Source of the DNA: a virus | Taxonomy: Duplodnaviria > Heunggongvirae > Uroviricota > Caudoviricetes | Length of the DNA stretch: 12,219 nt | Strand: one strand, 5' to 3' | Virus record (IMG/VR): IMGVR_UViG_2545824708_000010 | Location: 1-12,219 of that record | Shown here: positions 1 to 12,219 of the stretch, piece by piece | How positions within the stretch are numbered: the first letter of the stretch is position 1 | Layout: each line of letters starts with the position of its first letter | Made by a program: the position numbers and the translations under genes | The notes under the pieces: model-generated | What the model saw: the letters and a program-made list of their open reading frames with translations, nothing else | Told to the model about the DNA's origin: nothing | Databases searched by the model: none

Positions 1-250
1 GCTCAGCGGCTTTTTCCACCCACGGCCTGATATTGCTGTACGGTGGGTTATTCCAGATTGCACCGTGGCTTACCCACTCAGAATTGAGCGCGTCGTCGGC
101 CTCAGTTAGCCAGTGAGCACACAGAGCATTTTTGTCGCTCGCTGCCGAATCCAGCCAGAATCCAAACTCAATATCCAGTGCATCAAAAAGCCAAAGCGGC
201 GTTTGCCAGCAGTCCTTGTCGTGTGCCGGCGTATTTGATTTGATAGTCAT
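1..250 (-). CDS. Phage Dam-like N6-adenine DNA methyltransferase, 5' part only (gene continues past the window's left edge)
   Basis: Minus-strand translation from ATG at 250..248 gives MTIKSNTPAHDKDCWQTPLWLFDALD...AIWNNPPYSNIRPWVEKAAE with an NPPY motif typical of N6-adenine methyltransferases. Start overlaps the NinB stop (ATGA). Not in the ORF track because no stop lies in the window. Confidence 0.65.
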   Translation of the reverse strand, partial: MTIKSNTPAHDKDCWQTPLWLFDALDIEFGFWLDSAASDKNALCAHWLTEADDALNSEWVSHGAIWNNPPYSNIRPWVEKAAE

Positions 251-693
251 GCAGCCTTCCCTTTTCGTTGTGACCATTCATACTCTCGCCGGGAGTCATC
301 ACTCCACCGCACGTTGCGCTCTGAGCCGAACCAGAACATGATTTCGATAAGCTCAGTCATGCTGGCCTTTCGCATTTTGCTGGTACGCACGCCAAGCATG
401 ACAACGCCACCGTCGATACCAGGAACACTTCGTTGCTCCAGTTTTTTGGTCTTAAGCCACAGGGCAGTGAACAGGTCTTTCCAGTCTTCCGGTGCCAGCC
501 GTTGACCATGCCATAGCACCTGACGCGAAACATCGTTCAGCATCGGCCACATACGGTCATTCTGCGCTTTGCTGCGTTTGGGTTCTTTAAGGTGGACTTC
601 GTGGGGTGACTTGTCGTCGATGGGAAGTGAGAGTATTGCGTCTATGGCGTTATTTCTGATTGCTTCGTTGCGAAGCATGTATATTTGCTTCAT
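247..693 (-). CDS. ninB: NinB-like recombination protein (nin region)
   Basis: 148 aa ORF. The segment LNDVSRQVLWHGQRL...WKDLFTA...RWSDDSRREYEWSQRKGKAA resembles my recollection of lambda NinB (DVSRQVEWHGRWL...KWSDEARLALEW...RAA). Position downstream of the replication genes fits. Confidence 0.8.
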   Translation of the reverse strand: MKQIYMLRNEAIRNNAIDAILSLPIDDKSPHEVHLKEPKRSKAQNDRMWPMLNDVSRQVLWHGQRLAPEDWKDLFTALWLKTKKLEQRSVPGIDGGVVMLGVRTSKMRKASMTELIEIMFWFGSERNVRWSDDSRREYEWSQRKGKAA

Positions 694-979
694 CGAAATT
701 CTTCTCTTTAATTCCAGCGGATCTGATAGCTTTCATTACTGCAATTACCGTTTTGTCTCTCCCATCCTCATAACCCATCGCATAAGCACCTTCTTCACCA
801 TCTTTCCAAAAGTCGTCATTCGATTCGGGCCAGTCGATATCCAGTTCAATAGCTGCTCGCGATGCCTGCCATGCCTCCCATGCAATCTCGACCTTGATGT
901 GCATAATCTTCATCACGTCACTTGAAACGTGATATTTGTTTTTAAACCATTCTTCAAACTGCTTTCTTGATTCGTCCAT
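650..979 (-). CDS. Hypothetical nin-region protein (109 aa, acidic)
   Basis: ORF-track ORF with a GAGGG ribosome-binding site about 9 nt upstream of the ATG at 979. Overlaps the ninB start by about 44 nt. No motif recognised. Confidence 0.55.
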   Translation of the reverse strand: MDESRKQFEEWFKNKYHVSSDVMKIMHIKVEIAWEAWQASRAAIELDIDWPESNDDFWKDGEEGAYAMGYEDGRDKTVIAVMKAIRSAGIKEKNFDEANIHASQRSNQK

Positions 980-996
980 CGATACTTACCCTCAGT

Positions 997-1203
997 TCAA
1001 CTCACAAAACGCCACGCCATTTTTGCTACGACAACAGGCATAACACCGATAATCACCCAGACAAATGCAGCGCCAAACAACGTATACCATGGGTCTTTAC
1101 CGTCATTCACAAGACGAATGTAGCTATTCAGAACAATAAAAAACGTCAGAAGAATCCATCCAACGCCAACGCATTTGAATGCGACGAGCATAAACTCAGC
1201 CAC
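997..1203 (-). CDS. Small hydrophobic membrane protein (68 aa, about 2 TM segments), probable GTG start
   Basis: ORF-track ORF. The codon at 1203..1201 is GTG, preceded by GGGGGGAGAG at about 7 nt. Two hydrophobic stretches (WILLTFFIVL and FGAAFVWVIIGVMPVVVA). First ATG is at 1191. Confidence 0.45.
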   Translation of the reverse strand: MAEFMLVAFKCVGVGWILLTFFIVLNSYIRLVNDGKDPWYTLFGAAFVWVIIGVMPVVVAKMAWRFVS

Positions 1204-1216
1204 GATTTACTCTCCC

Positions 1217-1251
1217 CCCAAATAAAAAGGCCTGCGATTACCAGCAGGCCT
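1217..1251 (-). terminator. Intrinsic terminator between helicase and nin genes (tR2-like position)
   Basis: Perfect 8-bp stem AGGCCTGC/GCAGGCCT (1228-1235 and 1244-1251) with an 8-nt loop. On the minus strand it is followed by TTTTTATTT. Confidence 0.6.
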
Positions 1252-1279
1252 GTTATTAGCTCAGTGATGTAGATGGTCA

Positions 1280-2716
1280 TCAGAATCCTCCTTTCTTCTT
1301 GGACTGCGGTTCCTCGCGTTCACGGCGGCGCATTTCAGCAGACTGTTGGTCTGTGTCATAAATAGCGCCATTTGCCTGAATGCAATACACCGTGCCGGTA
1401 TTGCCATGACGATTGAGGCGAAGGATTAGTTCGGTTTCACCAGGAGGAACGCTGTCATCAAAAGCGCCTTCACGATGGATCCCCACCCAATAATCGCAAT
1501 CCTGTTCAATCTGCCCTGTATCTCGTGAGTCACTTGGTAATGGGCGTTTATTGGTTCGGCTTTCCAGTGCGCGGTTAAGCTGTGTCAGAAGCACAACAAC
1601 GCAATCAAGCTCTTTGGCAAGGTTCTTCAGTCCTTTGGTGATCATGCCGTAAGCAAGGTCGTTGCGATCGGCCTTCTCAGCGGTCATTAGTGTCAGGTAA
1701 TCGACCAGAATCATGCCAACACATCCTTTTTCTCGCTTGATTCGACGGCTTTCGCTGACGATTTGAGCCAGAGATAATCCCGGCGTGTCGTCGATGTAAA
1801 GCAGGTCGATTTCACTCAAGCGATTGGCTGTTTCGATCGCCCTGTTGAAGTCACCATCGTAATCACCCTGATAGCCGTCATCAGCGTCATTTGTCGCCAG
1901 AAGGTAAAAAATATTGGGGTTAACACCTGACTTTTGCCCTACCAGTTTTTCCAGTATCTGGTCACCTGGCATTTCAAGGCTGAACATCAGAGCGGGCTTT
2001 TTCTCATGCACTGCGCAGTTGATTGCCATCTGGCTGTATAGCGTCGTTTTCCCCATCTTAGGGCGAGCGCCAATGACAAACAAAGAGCCTTTCACCAGAC
2101 CTTTCGGTGACAGCATCCTGTCCAGCGATGGGATCCCTGTGCTCATTCCTCGTTGTTCGCCTGACGGGTCAAATCGCTTCTCAAGGTCGCTAACCCAGTC
2201 TTCCATGACCTCACCAAATGAGCGAAGGCCGCGACGCGATCCGGTTTTTGCATGGTCTGTCAGTTGCGTGAAAATCGCCTGAATAGCTTCGTACTTCTGC
2301 GTTGCAGTCATTCCGTTGCGGGAATAGAGCAATTCCGTCGCTTCAGTCATGCGGTTGATGGCGTAGCGTTCCATTGCGGTTTCACGAACCTGCATTGCAT
2401 AGGCAACGATGTTTGCTGCGCTTGGCGTGTTCTTTGCGATCTCAGCGATATAAGCAAAACCGCCAACAGACTCCGTTAACGATTTACGCTCCAGTTCATC
2501 GAAAAGCGTCAGGCCATCTACTGGCTTTTGCTCCCGGTGCATTATGGTTATTTCTTCGAAAAGGATTTTGTGTGGCCGGCTGTAAAATGAATCAGGCTTC
2601 AGCATCGCCAGAACTTTCTGGACGCGCTCACTGCTGTCATCATCCAGAAGCAATCCACCAATCACCGCCTGCTCTGCCTCGATGCTATGGGGCGGCGCAT
2701 AAAAATTATCGGTCAT
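1280..2716 (-). CDS. DnaB-family replicative DNA helicase (P22 gene 12-type)
   Basis: Walker A VIGARPKMGKTT, N-terminal DnaB-like HSIEAEQAVIGGLLLD, and a RecA-like core. The ORF-track start at 2731 is a GTG; the ATG at 2716 (MTDNF) has a GAGGG ribosome-binding site. Confidence 0.9.
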   Translation of the reverse strand: MTDNFYAPPHSIEAEQAVIGGLLLDDDSSERVQKVLAMLKPDSFYSRPHKILFEEITIMHREQKPVDGLTLFDELERKSLTESVGGFAYIAEIAKNTPSAANIVAYAMQVRETAMERYAINRMTEATELLYSRNGMTATQKYEAIQAIFTQLTDHAKTGSRRGLRSFGEVMEDWVSDLEKRFDPSGEQRGMSTGIPSLDRMLSPKGLVKGSLFVIGARPKMGKTTLYSQMAINCAVHEKKPALMFSLEMPGDQILEKLVGQKSGVNPNIFYLLATNDADDGYQGDYDGDFNRAIETANRLSEIDLLYIDDTPGLSLAQIVSESRRIKREKGCVGMILVDYLTLMTAEKADRNDLAYGMITKGLKNLAKELDCVVVLLTQLNRALESRTNKRPLPSDSRDTGQIEQDCDYWVGIHREGAFDDSVPPGETELILRLNRHGNTGTVYCIQANGAIYDTDQQSAEMRRREREEPQSKKKGGF

Positions 2717-3605
2717 CGTGTTCACCCTCACGAACTTTCAGGTAGGTATTATCGTTAAGCAGGAAATCAAATCCCTTTTTGTGCCAGACGGTTCCGCGTT
2801 GATGGTTTGGGCGCTCTTCGAACATCCATCGGCAATTTTCGCCTACGTAGCTCAAATAATTTCTCCAGTCCTGCATCGTGAACCCATGCCCGTCAAGCTG
2901 GCGGGGTATCACTCCGGCTTTGCGCCAGAACGTTCGGATCTGGTTTTTACGCTTGTCATTCAGTGCGCGGATTCTTGGCGCTTCAGGAAGGATTTCGTGG
3001 TAAGCATCGACAACATCCTGACAGCTAACGGAAGGTTTTTTCTTGTCAGACTTTTTGTCTGCTGCGGTACTCTCTAATACGTCAGTATTAGAGATAATAT
3101 TATTATATTCTTTATCTGTGGTAATTTGCTGGTAATCTGCTGGTACAGTATTGCTTGCAGGCATTGGTATTGCTGGCTTTGAGGTGGTAATTTGCTGGTA
3201 ATCTGCTGGTACAAAATTTGACTGATAATCGTCATATTTCTCTACCGAGAAAACTGAGAATTTACCGTGTGAAACCCAGTCAATCATGCCGAGTTTTTTG
3301 AACTTTCTAAGCAGGTACTGAACGCGATCTGGTTTGAGTCCTGTTTCAAACGCCAGAGAGTTTCTACCGCCAAGTAGCTTCCCTCTGCCTACCAGAATTT
3401 CTCCTGCGTCAGTCATTACATACTCAGGCGTATGCTTTGCTTTGAGGATTAAGTGAACCCACAGATGCGCAGCTTCTGCGTCCTTGTAAAACGGCACATC
3501 CATAATTTTACGGTGCAGCAAGGCATACCCCTTACCGCTGCTTTGATGCGGTTGTTGTAGCCTTCTGGCCTCTCTGGCTTCGGCTAGATTAGATATGTTA
3601 CTCAT
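2706..3605 (-). CDS. O-like replication initiator protein (origin-binding; P22 gene 18-type)
   Basis: 299 aa ORF directly upstream of the helicase with an AGGAG ribosome-binding site. Contains the iteron DNA repeats, which produce the duplicated peptide [10 protein letters not shown]; placement of ori inside the initiator gene is the lambda O/P22 18 arrangement. Confidence 0.8.
3074..3213. repeat. Replication origin: iterons plus adjacent AT-rich region inside the O-like gene
   Basis: Two near-identical roughly 30-bp blocks (3118-3148 and 3183-3213), each holding two GTAATNTGCTG units (3121-3131, 3132-3142, 3188-3198, 3199-3209). Flanked at 3085-3115 by an AT-rich stretch and a 7-bp inverted repeat CTAATAC/GTATTAG at about 3074-3091. 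Confidence 0.75.
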
Positions 3606-3744
3606 GACCTTTCTCCTTCTGCATCAGCTTCACTTTTTCCAACTCAGCCCGGAATCGACCAGGCTGCTTGAAGCTGGACAGGAAGCGATCACGTAGTATG
3701 TGTTTGTGAATTTTGTCCTGGTAAGGACTGAGTTGTTTTGTCAT
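3598..3744 (-). CDS. Hypothetical small protein (48 aa) between cII and the O-like gene
   Basis: Minus-strand ATG at 3744 preceded by AGGAG. Translates [48 protein letters not shown] and its stop overlaps the O start. Below the ORF-track size cutoff, found by hand. Confidence 0.35.
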
Positions 3745-3778
3745 AATTACTCCTGTGGATTGATCCAGTCTTTCTACA

Positions 3779-4057
3779 TCAGGCCTCGAAGAATTTGCCG
3801 TTCTTCGGGGCTTTTTCTTTTGTCAGCATTCTGGCTACTTTCTTAGCCAGTTCCGCCAACTCCTCGTCTTCAACACCCCATTCAAGAACAGCCAGAAGCA
3901 TTCCCATTTTTGGGATGAAGCTGTCTTTCCATCGCGAAATTTGCGATTCATTAATTCCTAACGCGTCAGCAACCTTTCGCTGGCCACGTACAGCAATTCG
4001 ATTCAGGATGTTGCTTGTAATTGCATTCGCTTTCTTGCGAGTACTTGTAAGTTGCAT
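3779..4057 (-). CDS. cII: CII transcriptional activator
   Basis: 92 aa. The segment [42 protein letters not shown] matches my recollection of lambda CII ([42 protein letters not shown]). The RBS/start context TTAAGGAAATACTTACATATG also matches recalled lambda. Confidence 0.9.
3784..3821 (+). terminator. Plus-strand intrinsic terminator inside the 3' end of cII (oop-like antisense RNA terminator)
   Basis: Stem CCTCGAAGAA/TTCTTCGGGG (3784-3793 and 3801-3810, one G-U pair), 7-nt loop, then CTTTTTCTTTT. It is antisense to the cII C-terminal codons, as for lambda oop RNA. Confidence 0.5.
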
Positions 4058-4066
4058 ATGTAAGTA
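4035..4066 (+). promoter_or_regulatory. pRE-like CII-dependent promoter (TTGC-N6-TTGT box plus -10 region)
   Basis: TTGC (4035-4038), 6 nt, TTGT (4045-4048), then 12 nt, then TAAGTA (4061-4066). This is the same spacing as recalled for lambda pRE. A perfect TTGC-N6-TTGC also lies at 4011-4024. Direction is toward cI. Confidence 0.5.
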
Positions 4067-4116
4067 TTTCCTTAACTAATAAGAAGTTATGCGCATCAAC
4101 TTATGCGCGTTGTATT

Positions 4117-4160
4117 CCCGCATTTCGGCGGGAATGAGGACCATGACTGTTAAAGAGCGG
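4117..4160 (-). promoter_or_regulatory. nutR (boxA plus boxB) between cro and cII
   Basis: On the minus strand: boxA CGCTCTTTAACA (plus 4149-4160), then a boxB hairpin UCCCGC-CGAAAU-GCGGGA (plus 4117-4132). The same boxA/boxB recurs on the plus strand downstream of PL. Confidence 0.6.
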
Positions 4161-4165
4161 TGTTA

Positions 4166-4360
4166 CTATTTGTTTTTCTTGTTGCTTGGGAAAGGACGAA
4201 CTTCCTCTCCAATCACACTGCCATCAGGCTTTACCGTAACCATGATGTTACGGCCTGCCAGAATGGCCTTGCTGATAGCGCACTGGATTACACCAAAGTC
4301 ACTGGCTGCTTTAGCCTGTCCATGGATTTTGGCGTAATCGGCAAGTGTCATTCGAATCAT
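4166..4360 (-). CDS. cro: Cro repressor
   Basis: The segment [62 protein letters not shown] closely matches recalled lambda Cro ([59 protein letters not shown]). The ATG at 4360 has a GGAG ribosome-binding site; the ORF-track start at 4366 is a GTG. Confidence 0.9.
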
Positions 4361-4385
4361 ATGCACTCTCCGTTATTAACCATGA

Positions 4386-4466
4386 ACAAAGAATACTACA
4401 GGTATTCAAAGCAATCAATACTCAGGGTATTTTTAGTTTAAGTACCTTAGCTATTAGAATTAAGCT
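4386..4466. promoter_or_regulatory. OR operator region with divergent PR (toward cro) and PRM (toward cI)
   Basis: Two palindromic operators: GAATAC-TACAG-GTATTC (4391-4407) and AATAC-TCAGG-GTATT (4418-4432), with a possible degenerate third near 4437-4454. PR candidate on the minus strand: -35 TTGATT (plus 4413-4418), 17 bp, -10 TATTCT (plus 4390-4395). PRM candidate -10 TAGAAT (4455-4460) ends 6 nt before the cI ATG, implying a leaderless cI mRNA as in lambda. Confidence 0.65.
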
Positions 4467-5183
4467 ATGGAAAATAAAAAATCACTGACGACAGAACAGC
4501 TGGAAGACGCTAAGCGGCTTAAGGCTTTGTATGAGTCAAAAAAGAAAGAATTGGGAATAACCCAATACTCAATCGCTGATGAACTGGGTATCACCCAAGG
4601 AGCGGTAGGGCATTATCTTAATGGCAGAAATGCGCTAAACGTTGAGGTTGCATCTGGTTTTGCACGATTGTTGCAAGTCTCAATTGCTGATTTTAGCCAG
4701 TCAATTGCTGCCAAGGTTGCAGAACAGGCAGAAAGCCTTAAGAGCGATGCCAACGTAAGGTATGCAGGGGAATACAGAGCAGGAAAGAGGTATCCGGTGT
4801 TAAGCAGTATCCAGGCTGGCTCGTGGTGTGAAGCATGCGAACCATACACCATTAAAGACATAGATGTTTGGCTTGAGTCTGACGCGCATATTCAAGGTAA
4901 TGCGTTCTGGCTTAAAGTGGAAGGTGATTCAATGACGGCACCGGTTGGGTTAAGCATTCCAGAGGGAACATTCGTTCTTTTCGATACCGGAAGGGAGGCG
5001 ATCAACGGCAGCTTGGTCATAGCAAAACTTTCTGACTCTAACGAAGCAACATTCAAGAAGCTGATAATCGACGGCGGAAATAAATACCTCAAGGGACTTA
5101 ATCCTGCATGGCCTCTCGTGCCAATCAATGGAAACTGCAAGATTATAGGCGTTGCAATTGAGACAAAACTAAGGCTGGTTTGA
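4467..5183 (+). CDS. cI: CI-type prophage repressor (HTH DNA-binding domain plus S24 LexA-like autopeptidase domain)
   Basis: N-terminus LTTEQLEDAKRLKALYESKKKELGITQYSIADELGITQGAVGHYLNG resembles lambda CI. The C-terminal domain has Ala-Gly (YAGEY), the GDSM serine and the FKKL lysine, and resembles the recalled P22 C2 C-terminus (FWL.V.GDSMTAP.GLSIPEG...NEATFKKL...NGNCKIIGV). Confidence 0.93.
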   Translation: MENKKSLTTEQLEDAKRLKALYESKKKELGITQYSIADELGITQGAVGHYLNGRNALNVEVASGFARLLQVSIADFSQSIAAKVAEQAESLKSDANVRYAGEYRAGKRYPVLSSIQAGSWCEACEPYTIKDIDVWLESDAHIQGNAFWLKVEGDSMTAPVGLSIPEGTFVLFDTGREAINGSLVIAKLSDSNEATFKKLIIDGGNKYLKGLNPAWPLVPINGNCKIIGVAIETKLRLV

Positions 5184-5200
5184 TCACGCAAGGGGCGATT

Positions 5201-5569
5201 ATGGTTGGAACCGCTATAGCAAGCTTTTTTGGGATGTTGGCAATCTCGACAATTTACGGCTTAGCGCATGCTTTTATTGCGAAATCTCTATCAGAAAAAA
5301 TAAGCCAGGCTTGGGCGCATAGATCAGCTCGTTTCATGATTCTAGTGATCATAGCAATACAAGGGATATCTGCATTTATCCTCTATGGTTCAAGCTTATA
5401 CCTGTTGTATCAAGGCGCGACATTTACGCCTTACACCAGTGATTACGGAACTCTATACGATGGTAGTGAAGACATCTCTATGGCTTGGATTGTCTTTGGT
5501 TTATCTATGGCCGTGTCTGTTGTAGCAGATATCATTAAGGTAATTCTCGTCTTAACCTTCGCTGACTAA
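5201..5569 (+). CDS. Small multi-pass membrane protein cotranscribed with cI (rex/sie position)
   Basis: ATG at 5201 with an AGGGG ribosome-binding site, 18 bp after the cI stop. 122 aa with 3-4 hydrophobic segments (AIASFFGMLAISTIYGLAHAFIA, FMILVIIAIQGISAFILYG, MAWIVFGLSMAVSVVADIIKVILVLTF). The ORF-track start at 5180 is a TTG overlapping the cI stop. Confidence 0.6.
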   Translation: MVGTAIASFFGMLAISTIYGLAHAFIAKSLSEKISQAWAHRSARFMILVIIAIQGISAFILYGSSLYLLYQGATFTPYTSDYGTLYDGSEDISMAWIVFGLSMAVSVVADIIKVILVLTFAD

Positions 5570-5655
5570 CCTATAATCCCGGCAGCAATAGCTATCGGGA
5601 TCCACTTCACATATCCCGCATAAAAAGCACTGAACAAGCAGACACCGAAAAAATA

Positions 5656-5745
5656 AATATCCTTTGTATTCATTTGCTTATCATTATTTCATCAAAAATA
5701 AATACCTTGGGTATTTACACAATAAAATACCTACAGTATTCTTTA
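5656..5745 (+). promoter_or_regulatory. OL operators and PL promoter
   Basis: Operators with the same half-sites as OR: AATAC-CTTGG-GTATT (5701-5715), AATAC-CTACA-GTATT (5727-5741), and a degenerate AATAT-CCTTT-GTATT (about 5657-5671). PL candidate: -35 TTTACA (5714-5719), 17 bp, -10 TATTCT (5737-5742). Confidence 0.65.
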
Positions 5746-5788
5746 GCCATCAGCAGGACGCTGGAAGCCAAACGGAACAGATTGGCAG

Positions 5789-5828
5789 GCTCTTTAACAT
5801 TGATGGGATTGTCCCGCCGAAATGCGGG
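5789..5828 (+). promoter_or_regulatory. nutL (boxA plus boxB)
   Basis: GCTCTTTAACA (5789-5799), 13 nt, then CCCGCCGAAATGCGGG (5813-5828). This is the same boxA/boxB RNA sequence as the nutR site on the opposite strand, about 45 nt downstream of the PL -10. Confidence 0.65.
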
Positions 5829-6273
5829 AACTGAGTTTAACCAAACAGGAGGTGCCGTAATGGTGCACTAACGCGGTTAGACCGCAGCCGAAAGGAAATG
5901 CAGCAGTAATGATGCTGCCCTGAGTCGCCATTGAGCGAGCCTGCTTAGCATCGGGTTAGGGTCAATATATTAAAAGTAGCTCCGGTAAAGCAGCGCGAAT
6001 GCCAGACGCGCACCGGTTATCAGCGGCGATGAAGCGGCAGAGACTCAAGGGCATGAGCGCGCTCACTGCGAGAGTGTGAGTCAAAGAGTAGTTGGCTTTG
6101 GGATTGGATGAATGAGCAGGCTGATGCTCGACCAATGTATAAACAGCGCTCATGGCAAGCAGTAACCAATCTGCGCCTCAAGACAGCGTCACTGGTAGTG
6201 CGGGCGCTCTAACCAGTAAGCCGGAATTCAGCACCGGCCATCCAATCACCAAAGTCAATCATCGGAGGTCAAC

Positions 6274-6546
6274 ATGACAGTAGTCATTACATATCTGGCT
6301 GACGATAACGCCAGAAATCGCCGCAGAGCACGCAGACAGGCTCAACGTGAACAGGCAATGCAAGAACAGCGACTGGCGCGAAAAATTGCGCTAAAGCTCT
6401 CTGGTTGCGTCAGAGCAGACAAAGCAGCATCACTCGGAAGCCTTCGCTGCAAGAAGGCAGATGAATGCAGTGGAAGTATTTGCCTGCCAAACGTAGCCAT
6501 TTACGCGGCAGGCTACCGGAAATCAAAACAACTGACGGCGAGGTAA
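6274..6546 (+). CDS. N: N-like transcription antitermination protein
   Basis: 90 aa. First gene downstream of PL/nutL, with a GGAGG ribosome-binding site. N-terminal arginine-rich motif NARNRRRARRQAQREQA, as in lambdoid N proteins. Confidence 0.75.
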   Translation: MTVVITYLADDNARNRRRARRQAQREQAMQEQRLARKIALKLSGCVRADKAASLGSLRCKKADECSGSICLPNVAIYAAGYRKSKQLTAR

Positions 6547-6548
6547 TT

Positions 6549-6941
6549 ATGGGTCAGGAAGAAAAATATGAGCTTAAAAAGCTCATTGAAGAAGACGCCA
6601 TAGAAGAAATTGCAGCATTAACAACAGCTATAAATAATATTAGGTATGCGCTAAATACGCTTATCTCCTCATGCGACAAAAATAGCAGGGAATTTTTGAT
6701 ACTTGGCGCAGCTCTAGGAATAGTTGATGCGGCAACGCTTCACCTAATTACTCATGACGATATTCTTATTGAGCCGTATGAAACATTACTGCTTGTCAGG
6801 CAAAAAATGGCTGATGCCGCAGCAAATGGAGACCTTCAACTTTACATCGACTTAAGGAAAGTATTAAGGCGAATGGTCAGAACTGAAGGAGATATCCCAC
6901 TGAGCGATGCTAAACAAGGCATACAAGCAAAGCTGGAATGA
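6549..6941 (+). CDS. Hypothetical protein (130 aa) in the early-left operon
   Basis: ATG at 6549 with a GAGG ribosome-binding site, starting 3 nt after the N stop. The ORF-track start at 6465 would overlap N. No motif recognised. Confidence 0.6.
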   Translation: MGQEEKYELKKLIEEDAIEEIAALTTAINNIRYALNTLISSCDKNSREFLILGAALGIVDAATLHLITHDDILIEPYETLLLVRQKMADAAANGDLQLYIDLRKVLRRMVRTEGDIPLSDAKQGIQAKLE

Positions 6942-7001
6942 CCATTATCCTGATGAAGTATCGAAAGCACAGTCAGCAATTAGCAAAGCTCTTGGGGAAG
7001 A

Positions 7002-7163
7002 ATGATGAATAAGAAATACATTGTTGAAGTTATAGAGCGAGAAACGAAAGAAGTAATCAAACATTTCGAATTTGATAATTATAGAAAACCTGACCGCGTA
7101 GAAGAAGGATTGTTGCGACAAAGTAATCTCGAAAAATTTGATGTTGTCATGCGATGCGAATAA
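7002..7163 (+). CDS. Hypothetical small protein (53 aa)
   Basis: ATG at 7002 preceded by GGGGAAG. Translates MMNKKYIVEVIERETKEVIKHFEFDNYRKPDRVEEGLLRQSNLEKFDVVMRCE. Below the ORF-track cutoff. Confidence 0.4.
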   Translation: MMNKKYIVEVIERETKEVIKHFEFDNYRKPDRVEEGLLRQSNLEKFDVVMRCE

Positions 7164-7256
7164 GCGCCTATAGCAGATTTACGAGTCTGCTATGTGAGCA
7201 ATGTCGCTCGTAACTAAACAGGAGCCGACTTGTTCTGATTATTGGAAATCTTCTTT

Positions 7257-7281
7257 GCCCTCCAGTGTGAGGGCCTTTTTA
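7257..7281 (+). terminator. Intrinsic terminator (tL-like) in the early-left operon
   Basis: Stem GCCCTC/GAGGGC (7257-7262 and 7269-7274), 6-nt loop, followed by CTTTTTAT. Confidence 0.55.
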
Positions 7282-7346
7282 TATGCATACCAATAACGCT
7301 TCACTCGAGGCGTTTTCGTTATGCAATCAAACAGAAGGAGCATCCT

Positions 7347-7517
7347 ATGCAACAGTTCGCTATTGCAGGGGCGGCATCGGTTCGCCCTTTCAACCCGATT
7401 TTATCGGTACAGCATTCACGAAAAAATATTTTAACCGGAGCAGACTTTAAACAACCAAGAATGAAAAGCTTGCTCGAAAAGCTTTGGGATATTTTGAAAC
7501 AACAAGGCCGTCCATGA
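7347..7517 (+). CDS. cIII: CIII-like small protein (56 aa; candidate FtsH inhibitor that stabilises CII)
   Basis: Strong AAGGAG ribosome-binding site 6 nt upstream. N-terminus MQQFAIAGAA and SLLEKLWDILKQQGRP resemble recalled lambda CIII (MQYAIAGWPVAG...SLLERITRKLRDGWKRLIDILNQPG). Position after N fits. The ORF-track start at 7242 is judged to be upstream read-through. Confidence 0.5.
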   Translation: MQQFAIAGAASVRPFNPILSVQHSRKNILTGADFKQPRMKSLLEKLWDILKQQGRP

Positions 7518-7543
7518 GTTTTACCAATAAGGGGAGCAAGTAA

Positions 7544-8635
7544 ATGGCTATTCAGACTAAAACATTGCAGGTACGCGTCAAAGACCGCCACGCCGCCTTG
7601 TTGCGTCAGATGGCCTTTGAAGTGAACCAAGTTTTTAACTTTATCAATGAAATGACTGCGACTGAATACAGCACTGTCAGCGAATACGGACCAAAACAAA
7701 GAGTTTGGTTAACTGAATTTGACGTAGATAAACGCATTGCTGGTATTCAAAAGGAGCGCGGATACCACATACAAGCAGCTACTTGTCAGGAAATCTCAAA
7801 ACATCACGCTAAAGCGCGTAAACAGTTTAAACGCAGTAAGCTGCGCTGGCGTAAAAGTGGCGGTGCTGGGCGTAGTCTTGGTTGGGTTCCGTTCAAAGGT
7901 GCTCAAGTGAAATGGGTAAACGGCTGCATCAAGTTTGCCGGGCACTATTTCAAAGTGTGGGATAGCTATGGATTAAATGGCTTTAAATTCCGTGCTGGTA
8001 ACTTTGCAGAAGATGCGCGCGGTCGCTGGTATTTCAATGTTGCAGTTGAATACGAATGCGAACCAACTAAAGGCACTGCCGACGTGGGTATCGATCTTGG
8101 TCTGAAAGACATTGCCACCACTTCGGATGGTGAAAAACTTCCTGCTAAACGTTGGTATCGTGAATTAGAAGGCAAATTAAAAATTGCTCAACGTGCCCAT
8201 AATAAAAAACGTGTTAGAGCTATCCACGCAAAAATCAAAAATCGCCGTAAAGATGCACACCATAAGTTTTCTACGGCGCTGGTTAATAAATACGCCGCTA
8301 TTTTTGTAGGCGACGTAAGCAGTAAAAAGTTATCAAAAACAAATTTGGCAAAAAGTATCTACGACGCCGGCTGGTGTCAGCTAAAAAATCAGATTCAGTA
8401 TAAAGCGATTGCGCGGAGTGTGGTTTTTGAGGTCGTAGATGAAGCGTACACCACCCAGACTTGCTCGTGCTGCGGAGCTATTAGCTGCAGTAGTCCGAAG
8501 GGTAGGGTAGGCCTTGGAATAAGAGAATGGATCTGCGTGGAATGTGGTGAACTCCACGACCGCGACGTAAACGCGGCAAAGAACATTCTCGCGGCGGGAC
8601 ATCGCCGTCTCGAAGGAGGAATCCACGCCCTTTAG
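7544..8635 (+). CDS. tnpB: TnpB-family protein (IS200/IS605 OrfB-type RNA-guided nuclease fold)
   Basis: 363 aa with a GGGGAG ribosome-binding site. RuvC-I VGIDLGLKDIATTSDG; an acidic residue in IFVGDVSS at the RuvC-II position; C4 zinc finger CSCCG...CVECG; RuvC-III HDRDVNAAKNI. Confidence 0.9.
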   Translation: MAIQTKTLQVRVKDRHAALLRQMAFEVNQVFNFINEMTATEYSTVSEYGPKQRVWLTEFDVDKRIAGIQKERGYHIQAATCQEISKHHAKARKQFKRSKLRWRKSGGAGRSLGWVPFKGAQVKWVNGCIKFAGHYFKVWDSYGLNGFKFRAGNFAEDARGRWYFNVAVEYECEPTKGTADVGIDLGLKDIATTSDGEKLPAKRWYRELEGKLKIAQRAHNKKRVRAIHAKIKNRRKDAHHKFSTALVNKYAAIFVGDVSSKKLSKTNLAKSIYDAGWCQLKNQIQYKAIARSVVFEVVDEAYTTQTCSCCGAISCSSPKGRVGLGIREWICVECGELHDRDVNAAKNILAAGHRRLEGGIHAL

Positions 8636-8643
8636 GGCGTGGA
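8622..8643 (+). other. Perfect hairpin at the tnpB stop codon (candidate right-end or guide-RNA scaffold element)
   Basis: TCCACGCCC-TTTA-GGGCGTGGA, a 9-bp perfect stem around a 4-nt loop that contains the TAG stop. Confidence 0.5.
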
Positions 8644-8901
8644 GGATGTCAAAGATAACTGGTCAGACAAAGAATTCATTCGTCAGATGAAAGAATTAAT
8701 CGGTAACGAAGGAGATATGCATGTCACTTGCAACCACAGTGAAGGAGAGCAAGTTACAGAGACGCATGTACACGCAGAAAGCTCTCTGGTATCGCCATAA
8801 TGGCGACCGCGAAGGAATGCGGGTATGCCTTAATTTGTCCCGAGTCGAAGTATTAAATCAGCGTTATTTCCTTGGGCCATGTCCATTCTGAGAACAATCA
8901 T

Positions 8902-9507
8902 ATGAGCAAAGAATTTTACGCAAGACTGGCAGCTATTCAGGAGAATCTGAACGCGCCAAAGAATCAGTACAACTCATTCGGCAAATATAAATACAGAAGC
9001 TGCGAAGACATTCTTGAAGGCGTTAAGCCGTTACTGAATGGCCTGTTTTTATCAATCAGCGATGAAGTTGTGCTGATTGGTGATCGGTATTACGTGAAAG
9101 CCACGGCAACTATTACCGATGGCGAAAACAGCCATACGGCAACCGCTCTTGCACGAGAGGAAGAAAGCAAGAAAGGAATGGATTCTGCACAAGTTACGGG
9201 AGCTACAAGCTCTTATGCACGCAAGTATTGCCTCAATGGTTTGTTCGGCATTGATGATGCGAAAGATGCAGATACCGACGAGCATAAACATCAGCAGAAC
9301 GCAGCAGCAAAGCAATCAAAACCATCACCTACACCTGAACAGGTTCTAAAAGCATTCACTGACGCAGCATTGCAGAAAAACACCGTAGAAGAGCTTAAAC
9401 AGGCGTTCGCCAAAGCGTGGAAGATGCTCGAAGGCACACCGGAGCAGCACAAAGCACAGGACGTTTACAACATCAGACGAGACGAATTAGAAGGAGCGGC
9501 TGCTTAA
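8902..9507 (+). CDS. erf: Erf-family single-strand annealing recombinase (P22 Erf-like)
   Basis: From the first ATG: MSKEFYARLAAIQENLNAPKNQYNSFGKYKYRSCEDILEG..., which matches my recollection of P22 Erf. Its stop overlaps the ssb start (TAATG). The ORF-track start at 8872 is a TTG. Confidence 0.8.
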   Translation: MSKEFYARLAAIQENLNAPKNQYNSFGKYKYRSCEDILEGVKPLLNGLFLSISDEVVLIGDRYYVKATATITDGENSHTATALAREEESKKGMDSAQVTGATSSYARKYCLNGLFGIDDAKDADTDEHKHQQNAAAKQSKPSPTPEQVLKAFTDAALQKNTVEELKQAFAKAWKMLEGTPEQHKAQDVYNIRRDELEGAAA

Positions 9508-9890
9508 TGGCACATTCGATTACTGTAAGACTAAACAAGCCCGCAAGAGAGTTTCAGGCCGGGGAAAATATCGGATTCAACATCCGTGCTGGCGTTCAGT
9601 ATTACGATCGCCAGACAAAAAAGAAAGAATGGACAAACTACAGCGCCGTTGTATTTGCCAAGCCGGGAGCGCAAGCGGATTACTACCGTAGTGTTCTTGT
9701 TGAAGGTGGCATTGTGGAAATTACCGGAGAAAACATCAGGGTTGATGTTTATCAGGGGCAAAATGGTCAATCAATCACTCTTGAATTACTGAATGCAAAG
9801 ATTGGATTTGCAACTTCAGGAAACAGCCAACAGCAGCAAAGTAGCAATCATCAAAATCATCCTGAATACGACGATTCAATTCCCTTCTAG
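9507..9890 (+). CDS. ssb: Single-stranded DNA-binding protein (short phage SSB)
   Basis: 127 aa. Predicted OB-fold N-terminus, a Q/S/N-rich linker and a C-terminal acidic tail DDSIPF (E. coli SSB ends DDDIPF). Translationally coupled to erf. Confidence 0.8.
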   Translation: MAHSITVRLNKPAREFQAGENIGFNIRAGVQYYDRQTKKKEWTNYSAVVFAKPGAQADYYRSVLVEGGIVEITGENIRVDVYQGQNGQSITLELLNAKIGFATSGNSQQQQSSNHQNHPEYDDSIPF

Positions 9891-9913
9891 ATTAGCAAAA
9901 TAAGGATTCCATT

Positions 9914-10207
9914 ATGCCAGCGCCTCTGTATGGTGCGGATGACCCGCGCCGCTGTTCCGGCAATTCCGTATCGGAGGTGCTGGATAAATTCAGAAAAAAC
10001 TACGATCGAATAATGTCTCTACCGCAGGAAACGAAAGAGGAAAAGGAGTTTCGCCACTGCATATGGCTTGCAGAGAAAGAAGAACGAGAGCGAATTTACC
10101 AGACATCAATCCGACCATTCCGCAAAGCCACATATACCCACTTCCCTGAAATCGACCCGCGCCTGCGTAATTACCGCTCACGCTATGGCGCTATCAGTAA
10201 TGACTGA
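9914..10207 (+). CDS. abc2: Abc2-like protein (candidate anti-RecBCD function)
   Basis: 97 aa with an AAGGA ribosome-binding site. Size and position immediately after erf/ssb match P22 abc2. The sequence identity is from uncertain recollection. Confidence 0.5.
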   Translation: MPAPLYGADDPRRCSGNSVSEVLDKFRKNYDRIMSLPQETKEEKEFRHCIWLAEKEERERIYQTSIRPFRKATYTHFPEIDPRLRNYRSRYGAISND

Positions 10208-10217
10208 GGAATTAACA

Positions 10218-10508
10218 ATGAAAACAATGAAGCTAAACATCGACCTCGGAAAATACGTTATTACCGGAACAAAACACGATCTGATTCTTAGCGAAAGAGG
10301 AATTATCAAAGAAGGCGAGAATGCAGGGAAAGAAACACTAAGCCGTATCGGTTATTACAGCAAGTTTGAGCATCTGGTTAAAGAGTTATGCAACCGTGAA
10401 ATCCTGTTATCTCAGGCGCAGACGCTACAGGATATTCAGCAGCATATCGAGACTTTAGGTGTGTCACTTAGCATGGCTATTGACCAGTTCGTGGAGAGTA
10501 AATCATGA
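10218..10508 (+). CDS. Hypothetical protein (96 aa) at the abc1 position
   Basis: ATG at 10218 with a GAGG ribosome-binding site 8 nt upstream. The ORF-track start at 10068 would overlap abc2. Confidence 0.5.
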   Translation: MKTMKLNIDLGKYVITGTKHDLILSERGIIKEGENAGKETLSRIGYYSKFEHLVKELCNREILLSQAQTLQDIQQHIETLGVSLSMAIDQFVESKS

Positions 10509-10666
10509 GAGGTCTTGCATACAATCCCGGCATTCTTCCGGCAGAAATGATTATTCGCCAACGCGTATAAGCCAATGCCATCGAGAGAGGAATTGCTTAA
10601 GAGAAATTCTTTTCCATCAGTGAATCAAAACAAATATCTGAATGCGATGTGGCGGAGTGGGAAGAA

Positions 10667-11110
10667 ATGAAACAAATGTCACTAATTGAGATGGATGGAT
10701 TTCTGAAAGGTAAATGCATCCCAAGTGATTTAAAGGTTAACGAAACAAACGCTGAATATCTGGTGCGTAAGTTCGGTGAACTTGAATCAAAACTAGAAAC
10801 AGCGTTGCGTGAGTGTCGTTCTGCTGGAATCACGATTGATAACCTTGAGGCCAAGTGCGCGGCGCTGGCTGTGGAGAATGCGGGGATGAAAGAATATCTA
10901 GCTCCAGTAGGGTTAGTGGTAGAGGGAACCCCAGCCACCGACGCCTTCCTGGCTGAAGTGCGGGCGCAGGGTGTGGAGATGGCTCGTAACGCGATGATTG
11001 ATTTTGTTGATGGTGAAGTTGGGCCAAACAAGAACGTTCCGGGGCTGATTAGAGGCGCAGAGATATGCGTAAGTATTGCTGCCCAGCTTCGCAAAGGAGG
11101 CAACCAATGA
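10667..11110 (+). CDS. Hypothetical protein (147 aa)
   Basis: ATG at 10667 with a GGAG ribosome-binding site. The ORF-track start at 10649 is a GTG. Stop overlaps the next gene's start. Confidence 0.55.
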
Positions 11111-11388
11111 GCGTAATCCAGTACGTAGTTAGAGATGCAGGCACGTTTCCTGAGGATGCGTTTTTTCTCGATCCTCGACACATCGATGAGCTCATTTCTG
11201 AGTGGGAATTGGAATGCTTGTCTCAGGATGCCTCCCTTGATTATTTTGACAATCATGACGGCTTGGAATCTGACTGGCCGTTGGATATCGAGCTATTCAT
11301 TGACGGTGAGAGCGTAGGTGTATTCACGGTTGAAATGGAACATGTACCTCAATTCAGCGCAAGAAAAATACCGGAGGCCGCCCAATGA
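11107..11388 (+). CDS. Hypothetical acidic protein (93 aa)
   Basis: ATG at 11107 with an AGGAGG ribosome-binding site. ATGA overlap with the following gene. Confidence 0.55.
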   Translation: MSVIQYVVRDAGTFPEDAFFLDPRHIDELISEWELECLSQDASLDYFDNHDGLESDWPLDIELFIDGESVGVFTVEMEHVPQFSARKIPEAAQ

Positions 11389-11915
11389 GCAACATCGACA
11401 AACGCGCATTACGTCATAGCGCAGAAAGCATAATCGGCATTCTGGAAAACATTGCCGGGTTCGAACCATCTGATATCGACGGCGACTCTGTAGAGCTCCG
11501 CTTTGAAACTGAGGACGGTTTCGATACTGGTTGTGACGTTAGCATTGTTGACCAGTGCCAGAAAACCGCTGATGTAGTTCGGGCGCTGCTGGATGAGCTG
11601 GAAAGAAACCAGCAATACATCAAACGCCGCGATCAGGAGAACGAGGATATTGCGCTAACGGTAGGGAAGCTGCGCGTTGAGCTTGAAGCAGCAAAATCAA
11701 AACTCAACGAGCAGCGTGAATATTACGAGGGAGTAATCGCGGATGGAAGTAAGCGCATAGCAGAACTGGAGGAGCGGGAAATACTGCTCCCGGAACGTAG
11801 CAGCATGCTTCATCGAACAGATTTTCACGAGGATTACCAAACGGTAATGGCATACAAAGTTTCTGAAGTCATCGATGCAATCCGCGCTACTGGCATTCGC
11901 ATCAAAGGAGAGTGA
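11385..11915 (+). CDS. Hypothetical protein (176 aa) with probable coiled-coil segment
   Basis: ORF-track ORF, translationally coupled to the preceding gene. Central heptad-like stretch ELERNQQYIKRRDQENEDIALTVGKLRVELEAAKSKLNEQREYYEG. Confidence 0.6.
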   Translation: MSNIDKRALRHSAESIIGILENIAGFEPSDIDGDSVELRFETEDGFDTGCDVSIVDQCQKTADVVRALLDELERNQQYIKRRDQENEDIALTVGKLRVELEAAKSKLNEQREYYEGVIADGSKRIAELEEREILLPERSSMLHRTDFHEDYQTVMAYKVSEVIDAIRATGIRIKGE

Positions 11916-11916
11916 T

Positions 11917-12219
11917 ATGAGCGCTATAACCAAAGAACGTGTCGAATTATTCATTAAAAATCCGCTTGATAACGGACTTACCCGTGGCGAACAAATGGAA
12001 CTGGCACGAATTGCACTGGCATCGCTGGAAGCAGATCCAGTTAAACGAGTTAACTCAGATCAGATGCGCCGAGTCTGCTTAGAAGCTAATCGCCATTTAG
12101 ATAAATATGACGCGATGGCGAAAGAGGTAAATAAGTTGCTTGGACGCATCGCCCCGCCAGCGCCGGTAGTGCCGGAAGAAGCAACTCCGGAAAACGTAGA
12201 AATGCTCTCTGGCTATGTT
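11917..12219 (+). CDS. Hypothetical protein, 5' part only (runs off the right edge of the window)
   Basis: ATG at 11917 with an AAAGGAGAG ribosome-binding site, 2 nt after the previous stop. Open for 101 codons to the window end. Not in the ORF track because it lacks a stop. Confidence 0.5.
   Translation, partial: MSAITKERVELFIKNPLDNGLTRGEQMELARIALASLEADPVKRVNSDQMRRVCLEANRHLDKYDAMAKEVNKLLGRIAPPAPVVPEEATPENVEMLSGYV

Follow-up and report, generated by a model that had tools for sequence, protein, structure and literature searches.

A TnpB with a relocated RuvC-II glutamate, most likely an active nuclease, in a transposase-less cassette of a lambdoid prophage

Results

We describe here a TnpB protein encoded in the virus record IMGVR_UViG_2545824708_000010 (Caudoviricetes), of which we analyzed positions 1 to 12,219 (this whole stretch of 12,219 nucleotides is referred to as the window here). 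Its gene belongs to a cassette of the IS200/IS605 type that consists of a solo tnpB, a guide-RNA scaffold, and a right end and that is inserted in a lambdoid prophage, where cIII and kil flank it (Table 1). The protein carries a glycine, Gly256, where canonical TnpBs have the RuvC-II glutamate, and a second glutamate 44 residues further on, Glu300, is invariant among its relatives. We consider it very probable that this is a TnpB of the RuvC-II rearranged type with the triad Asp184, Glu300, and Asp341, which makes the protein most likely an active nuclease. An earlier, sequence-only reading of the window had seen an aspartate in place of the missing glutamate and had left it undecided whether the protein cleaves DNA or is a binding-only derivative.

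Active-site residues of the protein

The open reading frame (ORF) at 7544-8635 encodes a bona fide TnpB. Among profile models, it is hit by NF040570 of NCBIfam, which describes a TnpB subfamily (E = 9.6e-62, 209.5 bits; cut-off, 100 bits), and, above the gathering thresholds, by PF01385 (OrfB_IS605) and PF07282 (Cas12f1-like_TNB) of Pfam, the latter spanning residues 277 to 348. An AlphaFold2 (AF2) model of the protein, built from an 86-sequence alignment, reached a mean predicted local distance difference test (pLDDT) score of 85.9. Foldseek matched it best to 8h1j and 8iaz, which are ternary complexes of TnpB (E values of ∼1e-19), with ISDra2 TnpB 8h1j on top (E = 1.3e-19; template modeling score, 0.72). 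All motifs quoted by the sequence-only reading are present in the ORF where it had located them, and its description of RuvC-I, the zinc finger, and RuvC-III as canonical was confirmed by alignment and by conservation.

The RuvC-II position was located by a phmmer alignment against solved structures, in which ISDra2 TnpB (8bf8/8exa/8h1j) matched with an E value of ∼1e-21, and by an independent MAFFT L-INS-i alignment of 40 family representatives with fragments of ISDra2 TnpB and of the artificial intelligence (AI)-designed TnpB 9yyg. Both alignments pair Asp184 and Asp341 with Asp191 and Asp361 of ISDra2 TnpB, respectively, and both place Gly256 opposite the catalytic Glu278 and Asp257 opposite His279. 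There is, hence, no glutamate at the canonical RuvC-II position. The sequence-only reading was right that this glutamate is gone and that a Gly-Asp pair is present, but the aspartate that it took for the RuvC-II acid lies one position off, and the glycine that it noted one residue earlier, which is real, occupies the catalytic position itself. In 9yyg, whose corresponding motif is V-E-D-L (“VEDLN”), Asp257 pairs with the D of “ED”; since this aspartate directly follows the catalytic glutamate, an aspartate at this place is a common neighbor and not the catalytic residue.

We assessed the conservation of these residues in a close set of 121 sequences with 60 to 100% identity to the protein and in a distant set of 74 near-full-length cluster representatives with 37 to 54% identity, obtained by an exhaustive HMMER search. 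Given that Gly256 is found in 121/121 close and 72/74 distant relatives, the glycine at the canonical position is a lineage-wide trait and not a chance substitution. Asp257 is far less constant (91 D and 28 N in the close set; 39 D and 27 N in the distant one, which also has G, S, A, and L). Since about one-quarter to one-third of the relatives carry asparagine here, a catalytic role of Asp257 appears unlikely, and this residue is better regarded as a bystander. Glu300, in turn, is present in all 120 nongap sequences of the close set and in 71/74 of the distant set, where at least two of the three exceptions seem to have a frameshift or some other break there. The remaining elements of the site are similarly conserved: Asp184 in 121/121 close and 73/74 distant sequences, Asp341 in 119/120 and 70/74, and the four cysteines of the C4 zinc finger in 120/120 or 119/120 of the close set and in 70 to 74 of the 74 distant sequences.

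In the secondary structure of the AF2 model, Gly256 and Asp257 sit at the C-terminal end of the strand formed by residues 250 to 257, and Glu300 follows directly on the next strand (residues 294 to 299). From this strand position and from published models of related enzymes, we infer that Glu300 would lie in the active site, where it could complete the acidic triad with Asp184 and Asp341 in place of the glutamate replaced by Gly256. The suggestion that Asp257 replaces the glutamate is not supported, as Asp and Asn alternate at this residue while Glu300 stays invariant. What the family shows is, in sequence terms, a conserved glutamate elsewhere in the active site, which is the result that the sequence-only reading had named as speaking against its own proposal. 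Among other nearby acids considered as catalytic alternatives, Glu296 (105 sequences of the close set, variable; 10 of the distant set, variable), Asp299 (mostly N in both sets), Glu333, and Asp339 were ruled out for their variability across the family. A residue-level link between Glu300 and Glu467 of mimivirus Fanzor2 (PDB 9b0l) was also dropped, since 9b0l ranked at E = 1 in a subsequence search of solved structures and its alignment would be unreliable.

This arrangement has published precedents. Altae-Tran et al. (2023; PMC10691335) described large TnpB clades, the largest being RIIr-5, in which the RuvC-II glutamate is changed to glycine and compensated by an alternative glutamate facing the active site, resembling RuvX, where beta-5 rather than beta-4 carries the glutamate. 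The location of Glu300 just past strand 294-299 would be compatible with such a beta-5 placement. In the work of Jiang et al. (2023; PMC10530073), the alternative glutamate lies ∼45 residues downstream from the canonical one, close to the 44 residues seen here; these authors reported that a rearranged TnpB from Thermoplasma volcanium (TvTnpB) cuts DNA specifically at its target-adjacent motif (TAM), that mutation of the alternative glutamate in ApmFNuc (E467A) abolishes cleavage, and that rearranged enzymes lack collateral activity. According to the study of TldR proteins (bioRxiv 10.1101/2023.11.30.569447), TnpB-like proteins were often flagged, in error, as catalytically inactive because of this relocation of the glutamate. 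The protein of the window is a further member of this RuvC-II rearranged class.

Guide RNA

When the complete window was compared with Rfam at gathering thresholds, no family was hit, and the guide RNA (omegaRNA or reRNA) is therefore supported by a dedicated alignment, for which we used the last 200 nucleotides before the TCAA end of 49 loci. The RNAalifold consensus of this alignment has 43 pairs, 17 of them with compensatory double changes. On this structure, 97.2% of the cells are paired, compared to 44 to 50% when the partners are slid by one to three columns, and the covariation score is 0.311, compared to 0.05 to 0.07 in the slid controls; none of 500 shuffles reached the observed values. 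The window copy keeps all of the best-supported helices and folds at −82.2 kcal/mol (z = −3.4). Of 80 related loci, which come from diverse Proteobacteria, all but one have a right end of the GGATGTCAA type (with one mismatch allowed), and conservation ends exactly after TCAA among the loci listed. Between phage-borne copies, the synonymous divergence (dS) is roughly halved where tnpB overlaps the guide RNA. Outside the overlap, the ratio of nonsynonymous to synonymous divergence (dN/dS) between phage-borne solo copies is ∼0.05, showing that the TnpB protein is under strong purifying selection.

By analogy with characterized TnpB systems, the guide is presumed to be the first 16 nucleotides of the right flank, AGATAACTGGTCAGAC; a 16-nucleotide guide has been reported for a TnpB relative (bioRxiv 10.1101/2023.11.30.569447). 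This segment is unique in the window and invariant in 10 of 11 carriers of the cassette, with the first variable flank position at 8669. One carrier, L083 (GCA_013771725.1; L083:5110), is without exactly these 16 nucleotides, its GGATGTCAA end being followed directly by GAAGAATTC. The deletion equals the presumed guide segment, so that this copy would carry a different guide. In the proposed mechanism, TnpB would pair with a guide RNA composed of the 3′-terminal part of the tnpB gene (about 8453-8652) and the ∼16 nucleotides with which the right flank begins, and the resulting ribonucleoprotein would recognize TTAC followed by AGATAACTGGTCAGAC, i.e., the uninterrupted cIII-kil site of related phages. 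Guide length and TAM use are what we infer here, as are catalytic activity and expression from the early-left promoter pL.

Cassette boundaries and prophage context

The boundaries of the cassette were defined by comparison with the empty site of phage vB_EcoP-720R6 (ON470605; locus L001), where L001:1501-1829 corresponds to window positions 7196-7524 and L001:1830-2277 to 8653-9100, with no bases lost or ambiguous at either junction. The flanks match many lambdoid phages, while the tnpB segment does not. The TTAC directly before the insertion is likely both the TAM and the target of the transposase TnpA, since copies in multicopy genomes begin right after TTAC or variants of it, the left ends of these relatives directly following TTAC, TTGAC, TGAC, TCAC, or TTTAT.

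Only 19 nucleotides of element sequence (7525-7543) precede the start codon, and these are homologous to the ribosome-binding, ATG-proximal region of a 91%-identical relative (L092, 2977-3000). No σ70-like promoter was found on the plus strand between 7000 and 9000, and the right-end hairpin motif has a single occurrence in the whole 12-kb window, at 8623-8642; a search for a left-end hairpin shifted to another place, or for any inverted repeat close to the 5′ end, found none. The cassette is, thus, without tnpA, without a left-end hairpin, and without a promoter region of its own. Because these parts have been lost, TnpA can neither accept it as a substrate nor mobilize it, and its expression must depend on the early-left transcript. 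Transcription would come from the early-left operon of the phage (pL), downstream of cIII and of the tL-like terminator at 7257-7274, and would need antitermination by N. The left junction is flush with TTAC although the whole left end, the promoter region, and any tnpA are absent. As a speculation prompted by left-end starts of relatives such as CAATGAAGCC, the junction TTAC/CAAT might stem from a deletion between short ACCAAT repeats, one at the original left-end terminus and one near the ribosome-binding site.

The window itself covers the part of a lambdoid (P22/HK97-like) prophage that holds its immunity and early functions, with genes for a DnaB-type helicase, a replication O-like protein, cII, and cro among those on the minus strand and cI, N-like, cIII-like, ERF, SSB-like, and Abc2 genes among those on the plus strand. 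Mosaic breakpoints lie downstream of the cassette (window 8892 and 10221, compared to L084, L085, and L090). Beyond 8892, the recombinase module of a carrier is of either the ERF type or the Rad52 type, and homology returns at about 9911-9914 with the gene of the anti-RecBCD protein Abc2.

Relatives of the cassette

A complete version of the element is found in E. coli in the form of a 75%-identical relative, P0016, which has a divergent Y1 tnpA (Y1_Tnp) as well as a hairpin at the left end similar to the one at the right end and which occupies at least three different sites in lambdoid prophages. One of these insertions (L099:2469-4112) is located at the equivalent of ∼7230, about 300 bp upstream of the window site and just before the tL-like terminator and cIII, another lies between dnaB and ninB, and there is a third site. 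Several other genomes hold multiple copies of related elements. Two further TnpB copies without tnpA (L092, 91% identical, and L103, 85% identical) reside in phages with unrelated gene contexts: head-morphogenesis and lysis genes enclose one of them, and the other has a DNA polymerase A gene nearby. Given these contexts, the lineage of the window TnpB appears to be phage-borne in general. Among 50,697 records of isolated phages, none carries the element, and the sole match is a 98-nucleotide right-end remnant in a Ralstonia phage. In that phage, RpY1 (MN996301.1; L226:1393-1598, near attL and the integrase gene), we observed the last 62 tnpB codons together with a right end finishing in GGATGTCAA, unannotated and present at two such places in the record. 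This remnant corresponds to the guide-RNA-coding part alone.

Population pattern

The identical 363-amino-acid protein occurs in 22 contigs, and in the ten that we examined the cassette always lies between cIII and kil, even though these carrier prophages differ in cI, cro, N, and the recombinase (ERF in some, Rad52 in others). Among 11 carriers, a single site varies in the 1128-bp insert, compared to 11 in 240 bp of the left flank and ∼37 in 240 bp of the right flank, and the flank haplotype of each carrier matches a different insert-free allele with 0 to 2 mismatches per 240 nucleotides. A near-identical insert on flanks that match different empty alleles indicates recent entry into several preexisting alleles by recombination within short flanking homology. 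The empty site is common: at least 120 IMG/VR contigs contain an intact TTTAC followed by AGATAACTGGTCAGAC, and an 80-nucleotide probe across the uninterrupted junction matches 328 of 5426 complete E. coli genomes at 95 to 99% identity. The occupied site was found in 2 IMG/VR contigs and 1 complete E. coli genome, which gives an occupancy of ∼0.3 to 2%.

TABLE 1 Coordinates of the cassette, the residues and RNA parts discussed, and the adjacent phage features in the window
Feature	Residues	Nucleotides	Strand	Remark
IS200/IS605-type element		7525-8652	+	1128 bp; solo tnpB, guide-RNA scaffold, and right end; from empty-site comparison
TTAC, presumed TAM and transposase target		7521-7524	+	Read directly 5′ of the insertion; left flank ends TTTAC
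Shine-Dalgarno-like AAGGGGAG		7529-7536	+	7 nt before ATG
tnpB ORF	1-363	7544-8635	+	363 aa; full length for its family
GIDLGLKD	182-189	8087-8110	+	RuvC-I
Asp184	184	8093-8095	+	RuvC-I catalytic Asp
IFVGDVSS	253-260	8303-8320	+	Nucleotides are those of FVGDVS
Gly256	256	8309-8311	+	Canonical RuvC-II Glu position
Asp257	257	8312-8314	+	+1 position
Glu300	300	8441-8443	+	Presumed relocated RuvC-II Glu (VVDE-AYTTQTC)
C4 zinc finger	307, 310, 331, 334	8462-8545	+	Cys307, Cys310, Cys331, Cys334
CSCCG	307-311	8462-8476	+	Zinc finger
CVECG	331-335	8534-8548	+	Zinc finger
HDRDVNAAKNI	338-348	8555-8587	+	RuvC-III
Asp341	341	8564-8566	+	RuvC-III catalytic Asp, in HDRDVN
Guide-RNA (omegaRNA/reRNA) scaffold		8453-8652	+	Overlaps last ∼60 codons; ends at right end ...GGATGTCAA; 5′ limit approximate
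Best-supported guide-RNA helices		8591-8597/8602-8608; 8609-8611/8616-8618; 8622-8643	+	Last one is the terminal hairpin, whose loop holds the TAG stop
Presumed guide AGATAACTGGTCAGAC		8653-8668	+	16 nt; right flank
Terminator-like hairpins upstream of cIII		7257-7274; 7295-7314	+	7257-7274 is the feature annotated “terminator” in HK97 and HK106
cIII-like gene		7347-7517	+	56 aa; stop 7 nt before the insertion; called in carrier loci; matching region annotated cIII and kil in HK97-like phages

Discussion

Several points weigh against our reading of the protein as an active nuclease of the rearranged type: the pLDDT score of the AF2 model drops to ∼67 just past residue 300, no cleavage assay was found for this TnpB or its close relatives, the copy without left end and tnpA could be recently immobilized and have no ongoing role, and the cassette is rare, with one occupied complete E. 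coli genome compared to 328 with the empty site. The missing left-end hairpin, promoter region, and tnpA as well as the rarity would also suit a functionless relic, i.e., an intact-looking fragment that was immobilized recently and hitchhikes with the cIII-kil module through lambdoid mosaic recombination, useless to itself and to the phage; the 11 copies differ at a single site, so that selection on this particular lineage is not measurable. We nevertheless find a relic unlikely, given that the ORF is full length, that the catalytic and zinc-binding residues and the guide-RNA helices are intact, and that other TnpA-less phage-borne copies (85 to 91% identical, at other sites) evolve under the low dN/dS described above. 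Moreover, the identical insert resides in flank alleles that differ at 4.6 to 15% of sites, which points to repeated recent crossing into diverged backgrounds.

The two other explanations concern the active site itself. Loss of the RuvC-II glutamate could have inactivated the protein and left it as a TldR-like, binding-only derivative that acts with its RNA as an RNA-guided repressor in the phage early operon, a scenario that would agree with the glycine at the canonical position, with the immobilized state of the cassette without left end or tnpA, and with the temperate phage host, where TldRs also occur. We judge this to be very unlikely. The canonical position alone is altered, and the family-invariant Glu300 is available in its place; the C terminus is not truncated, so that the zinc finger and RuvC-III are intact; and the same Gly/Glu pattern is found in clearly mobile relatives, some with tnpA and some in multiple copies. 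In addition, the guide matches the insertion site of the cassette itself and not the promoter of an associated gene, and the authors of the TldR study left out cases altered at a single position as spurious (bioRxiv 10.1101/2023.11.30.569447). On these comparisons of residues, a nuclease-dead protein, which the sequence-only reading had considered, is not supported, because the protein matches the published rearranged type, one member of which cleaves DNA in vitro. Likewise very unlikely, in our view, is a D-D-D triad with Asp257 as the RuvC-II acid. Asp257 is only one residue off the canonical position, at the end of its strand, and aspartate is the majority residue in the family, but relatives with Asn (28/121 close, 27/74 distant) or, occasionally, Gly, Ser, Ala, or Leu at this place have an invariant Glu300 in the same sequences. 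An aspartate at the +1 position is also seen beside the normal catalytic glutamate in canonical TnpBs, as in 9yyg, and ISDra2 has histidine there.

If the protein is an active nuclease, as we favor, the cassette might be an RNA-guided homing element (a phage-to-phage gene drive) reduced to tnpB, scaffold, and right end and residing in an N-antiterminated early-left operon, a proposal that we put forward tentatively and regard as somewhat doubtful. Upon infection or induction, the ribonucleoprotein would cut at TTAC-AGATAACTGGTCAGAC in the cIII-kil spacer of coresident lambdoid phages that are without the cassette, and the break would be repaired from the carrier by the phage recombinase (ERF or Rad52) together with the anti-RecBCD functions, all encoded just downstream, copying the cassette into new alleles. 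Such homing would be from phage to phage and would rely on the phage ERF or Rad52 protein; the element, without left end or tnpA, could not reexcise or transpose. Guide and TAM match the empty donor site exactly, and an identical insert in diverged flanks is consistent with the pattern expected of break-induced copying. The match of each carrier's flanks to a different empty allele and the abundance of perfect TAM-plus-target sites would likewise agree with homing. However, the population pattern is explained just as well by ordinary mosaic recombination as by TnpB-stimulated homing, and a strong drive is hard to reconcile with the low occupancy. A literature search on TnpB homing in phages found nothing specific to lambdoid phages.

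These results show that a missing canonical RuvC-II glutamate alone is not a sign of a dead, repressor-type TnpB, and checking for a relocated glutamate first would avoid misannotation of such proteins. The locus is best read as a prophage with a probably active RNA-guided nuclease and not with a regulator. It combines a compact rearranged-site TnpB of 363 amino acids with a well-defined scaffold and a presumed TAM that is simple (TTAC), in the setting of an E. coli phage, and would offer an easy system for studying the behavior of a rearranged active site. The cassette is also suited to asking whether TnpB drives homing between phages without any transposase, for which the left-end-less, transposase-less architecture together with the population signature is a modest lead.

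Comparison with known systems

The TAM of ISDra2 is reportedly TTGAT, compared to TTAC at the site described here. IS608 from Helicobacter pylori, also of the IS200/IS605 family, is said to insert 3′ of TTAC and to have a right end finishing in TCAA, and these same tetranucleotides bound the window element. The likeness to IS608 is one of bounding tetranucleotides. IS608 differs in having both ends and tnpA. Its TnpB belongs to the typical clade with the canonical glutamate (PMC10691335).

ISDra2 TnpB of Deinococcus radiodurans (PDB 8H1J, 8EXA, and 8BF8) shares with the window protein the fold, the aspartates of RuvC-I and RuvC-III, the zinc finger, and the arrangement of guide RNA and right end. 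The two proteins have ∼20% sequence identity and differ at RuvC-II, where ISDra2 has Glu278 instead of Gly256 and, opposite Glu300, Pro323 (MAFFT) or the adjacent Tyr324 (phmmer).

With TldRs (bioRxiv 10.1101/2023.11.30.569447), the window system has in common a TnpB-derived protein, an adjacent guide RNA, a temperate enterobacterial phage as host, and the loss of transposon mobility. In contrast, TldRs have deteriorated DED triads (at least two positions were used for their discovery) and often a C-terminal truncation that removes the zinc finger and RuvC-III, none of which applies here. They also have conserved partner genes and promoter-targeting guides, whereas the neighbors here are the ordinary genes cIII and kil and the guide is the flank of the cassette's own insertion site.

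The closest parallels are with the RuvC-II rearranged TnpBs (“TnpB2,” e.g., TvTnpB, PMC10530073; RIIr clades, PMC10691335), an assignment that we base on residue features and make at the level of the type, not of a named RIIr clade. Both have a glycine at the canonical glutamate position, a conserved alternative glutamate that follows the next strand, unaltered aspartates in RuvC-I and RuvC-III, and a C4 zinc finger, and both are found in an IS200/IS605 context, with a Y1 TnpA in relatives and a guide RNA that overlaps the 3′ end of the gene. The window protein is set apart by a RuvC-III motif of the DRDxN type (HDRDVN) and its gene by residing in a lambdoid prophage, within a cassette that has neither TnpA nor a left end.

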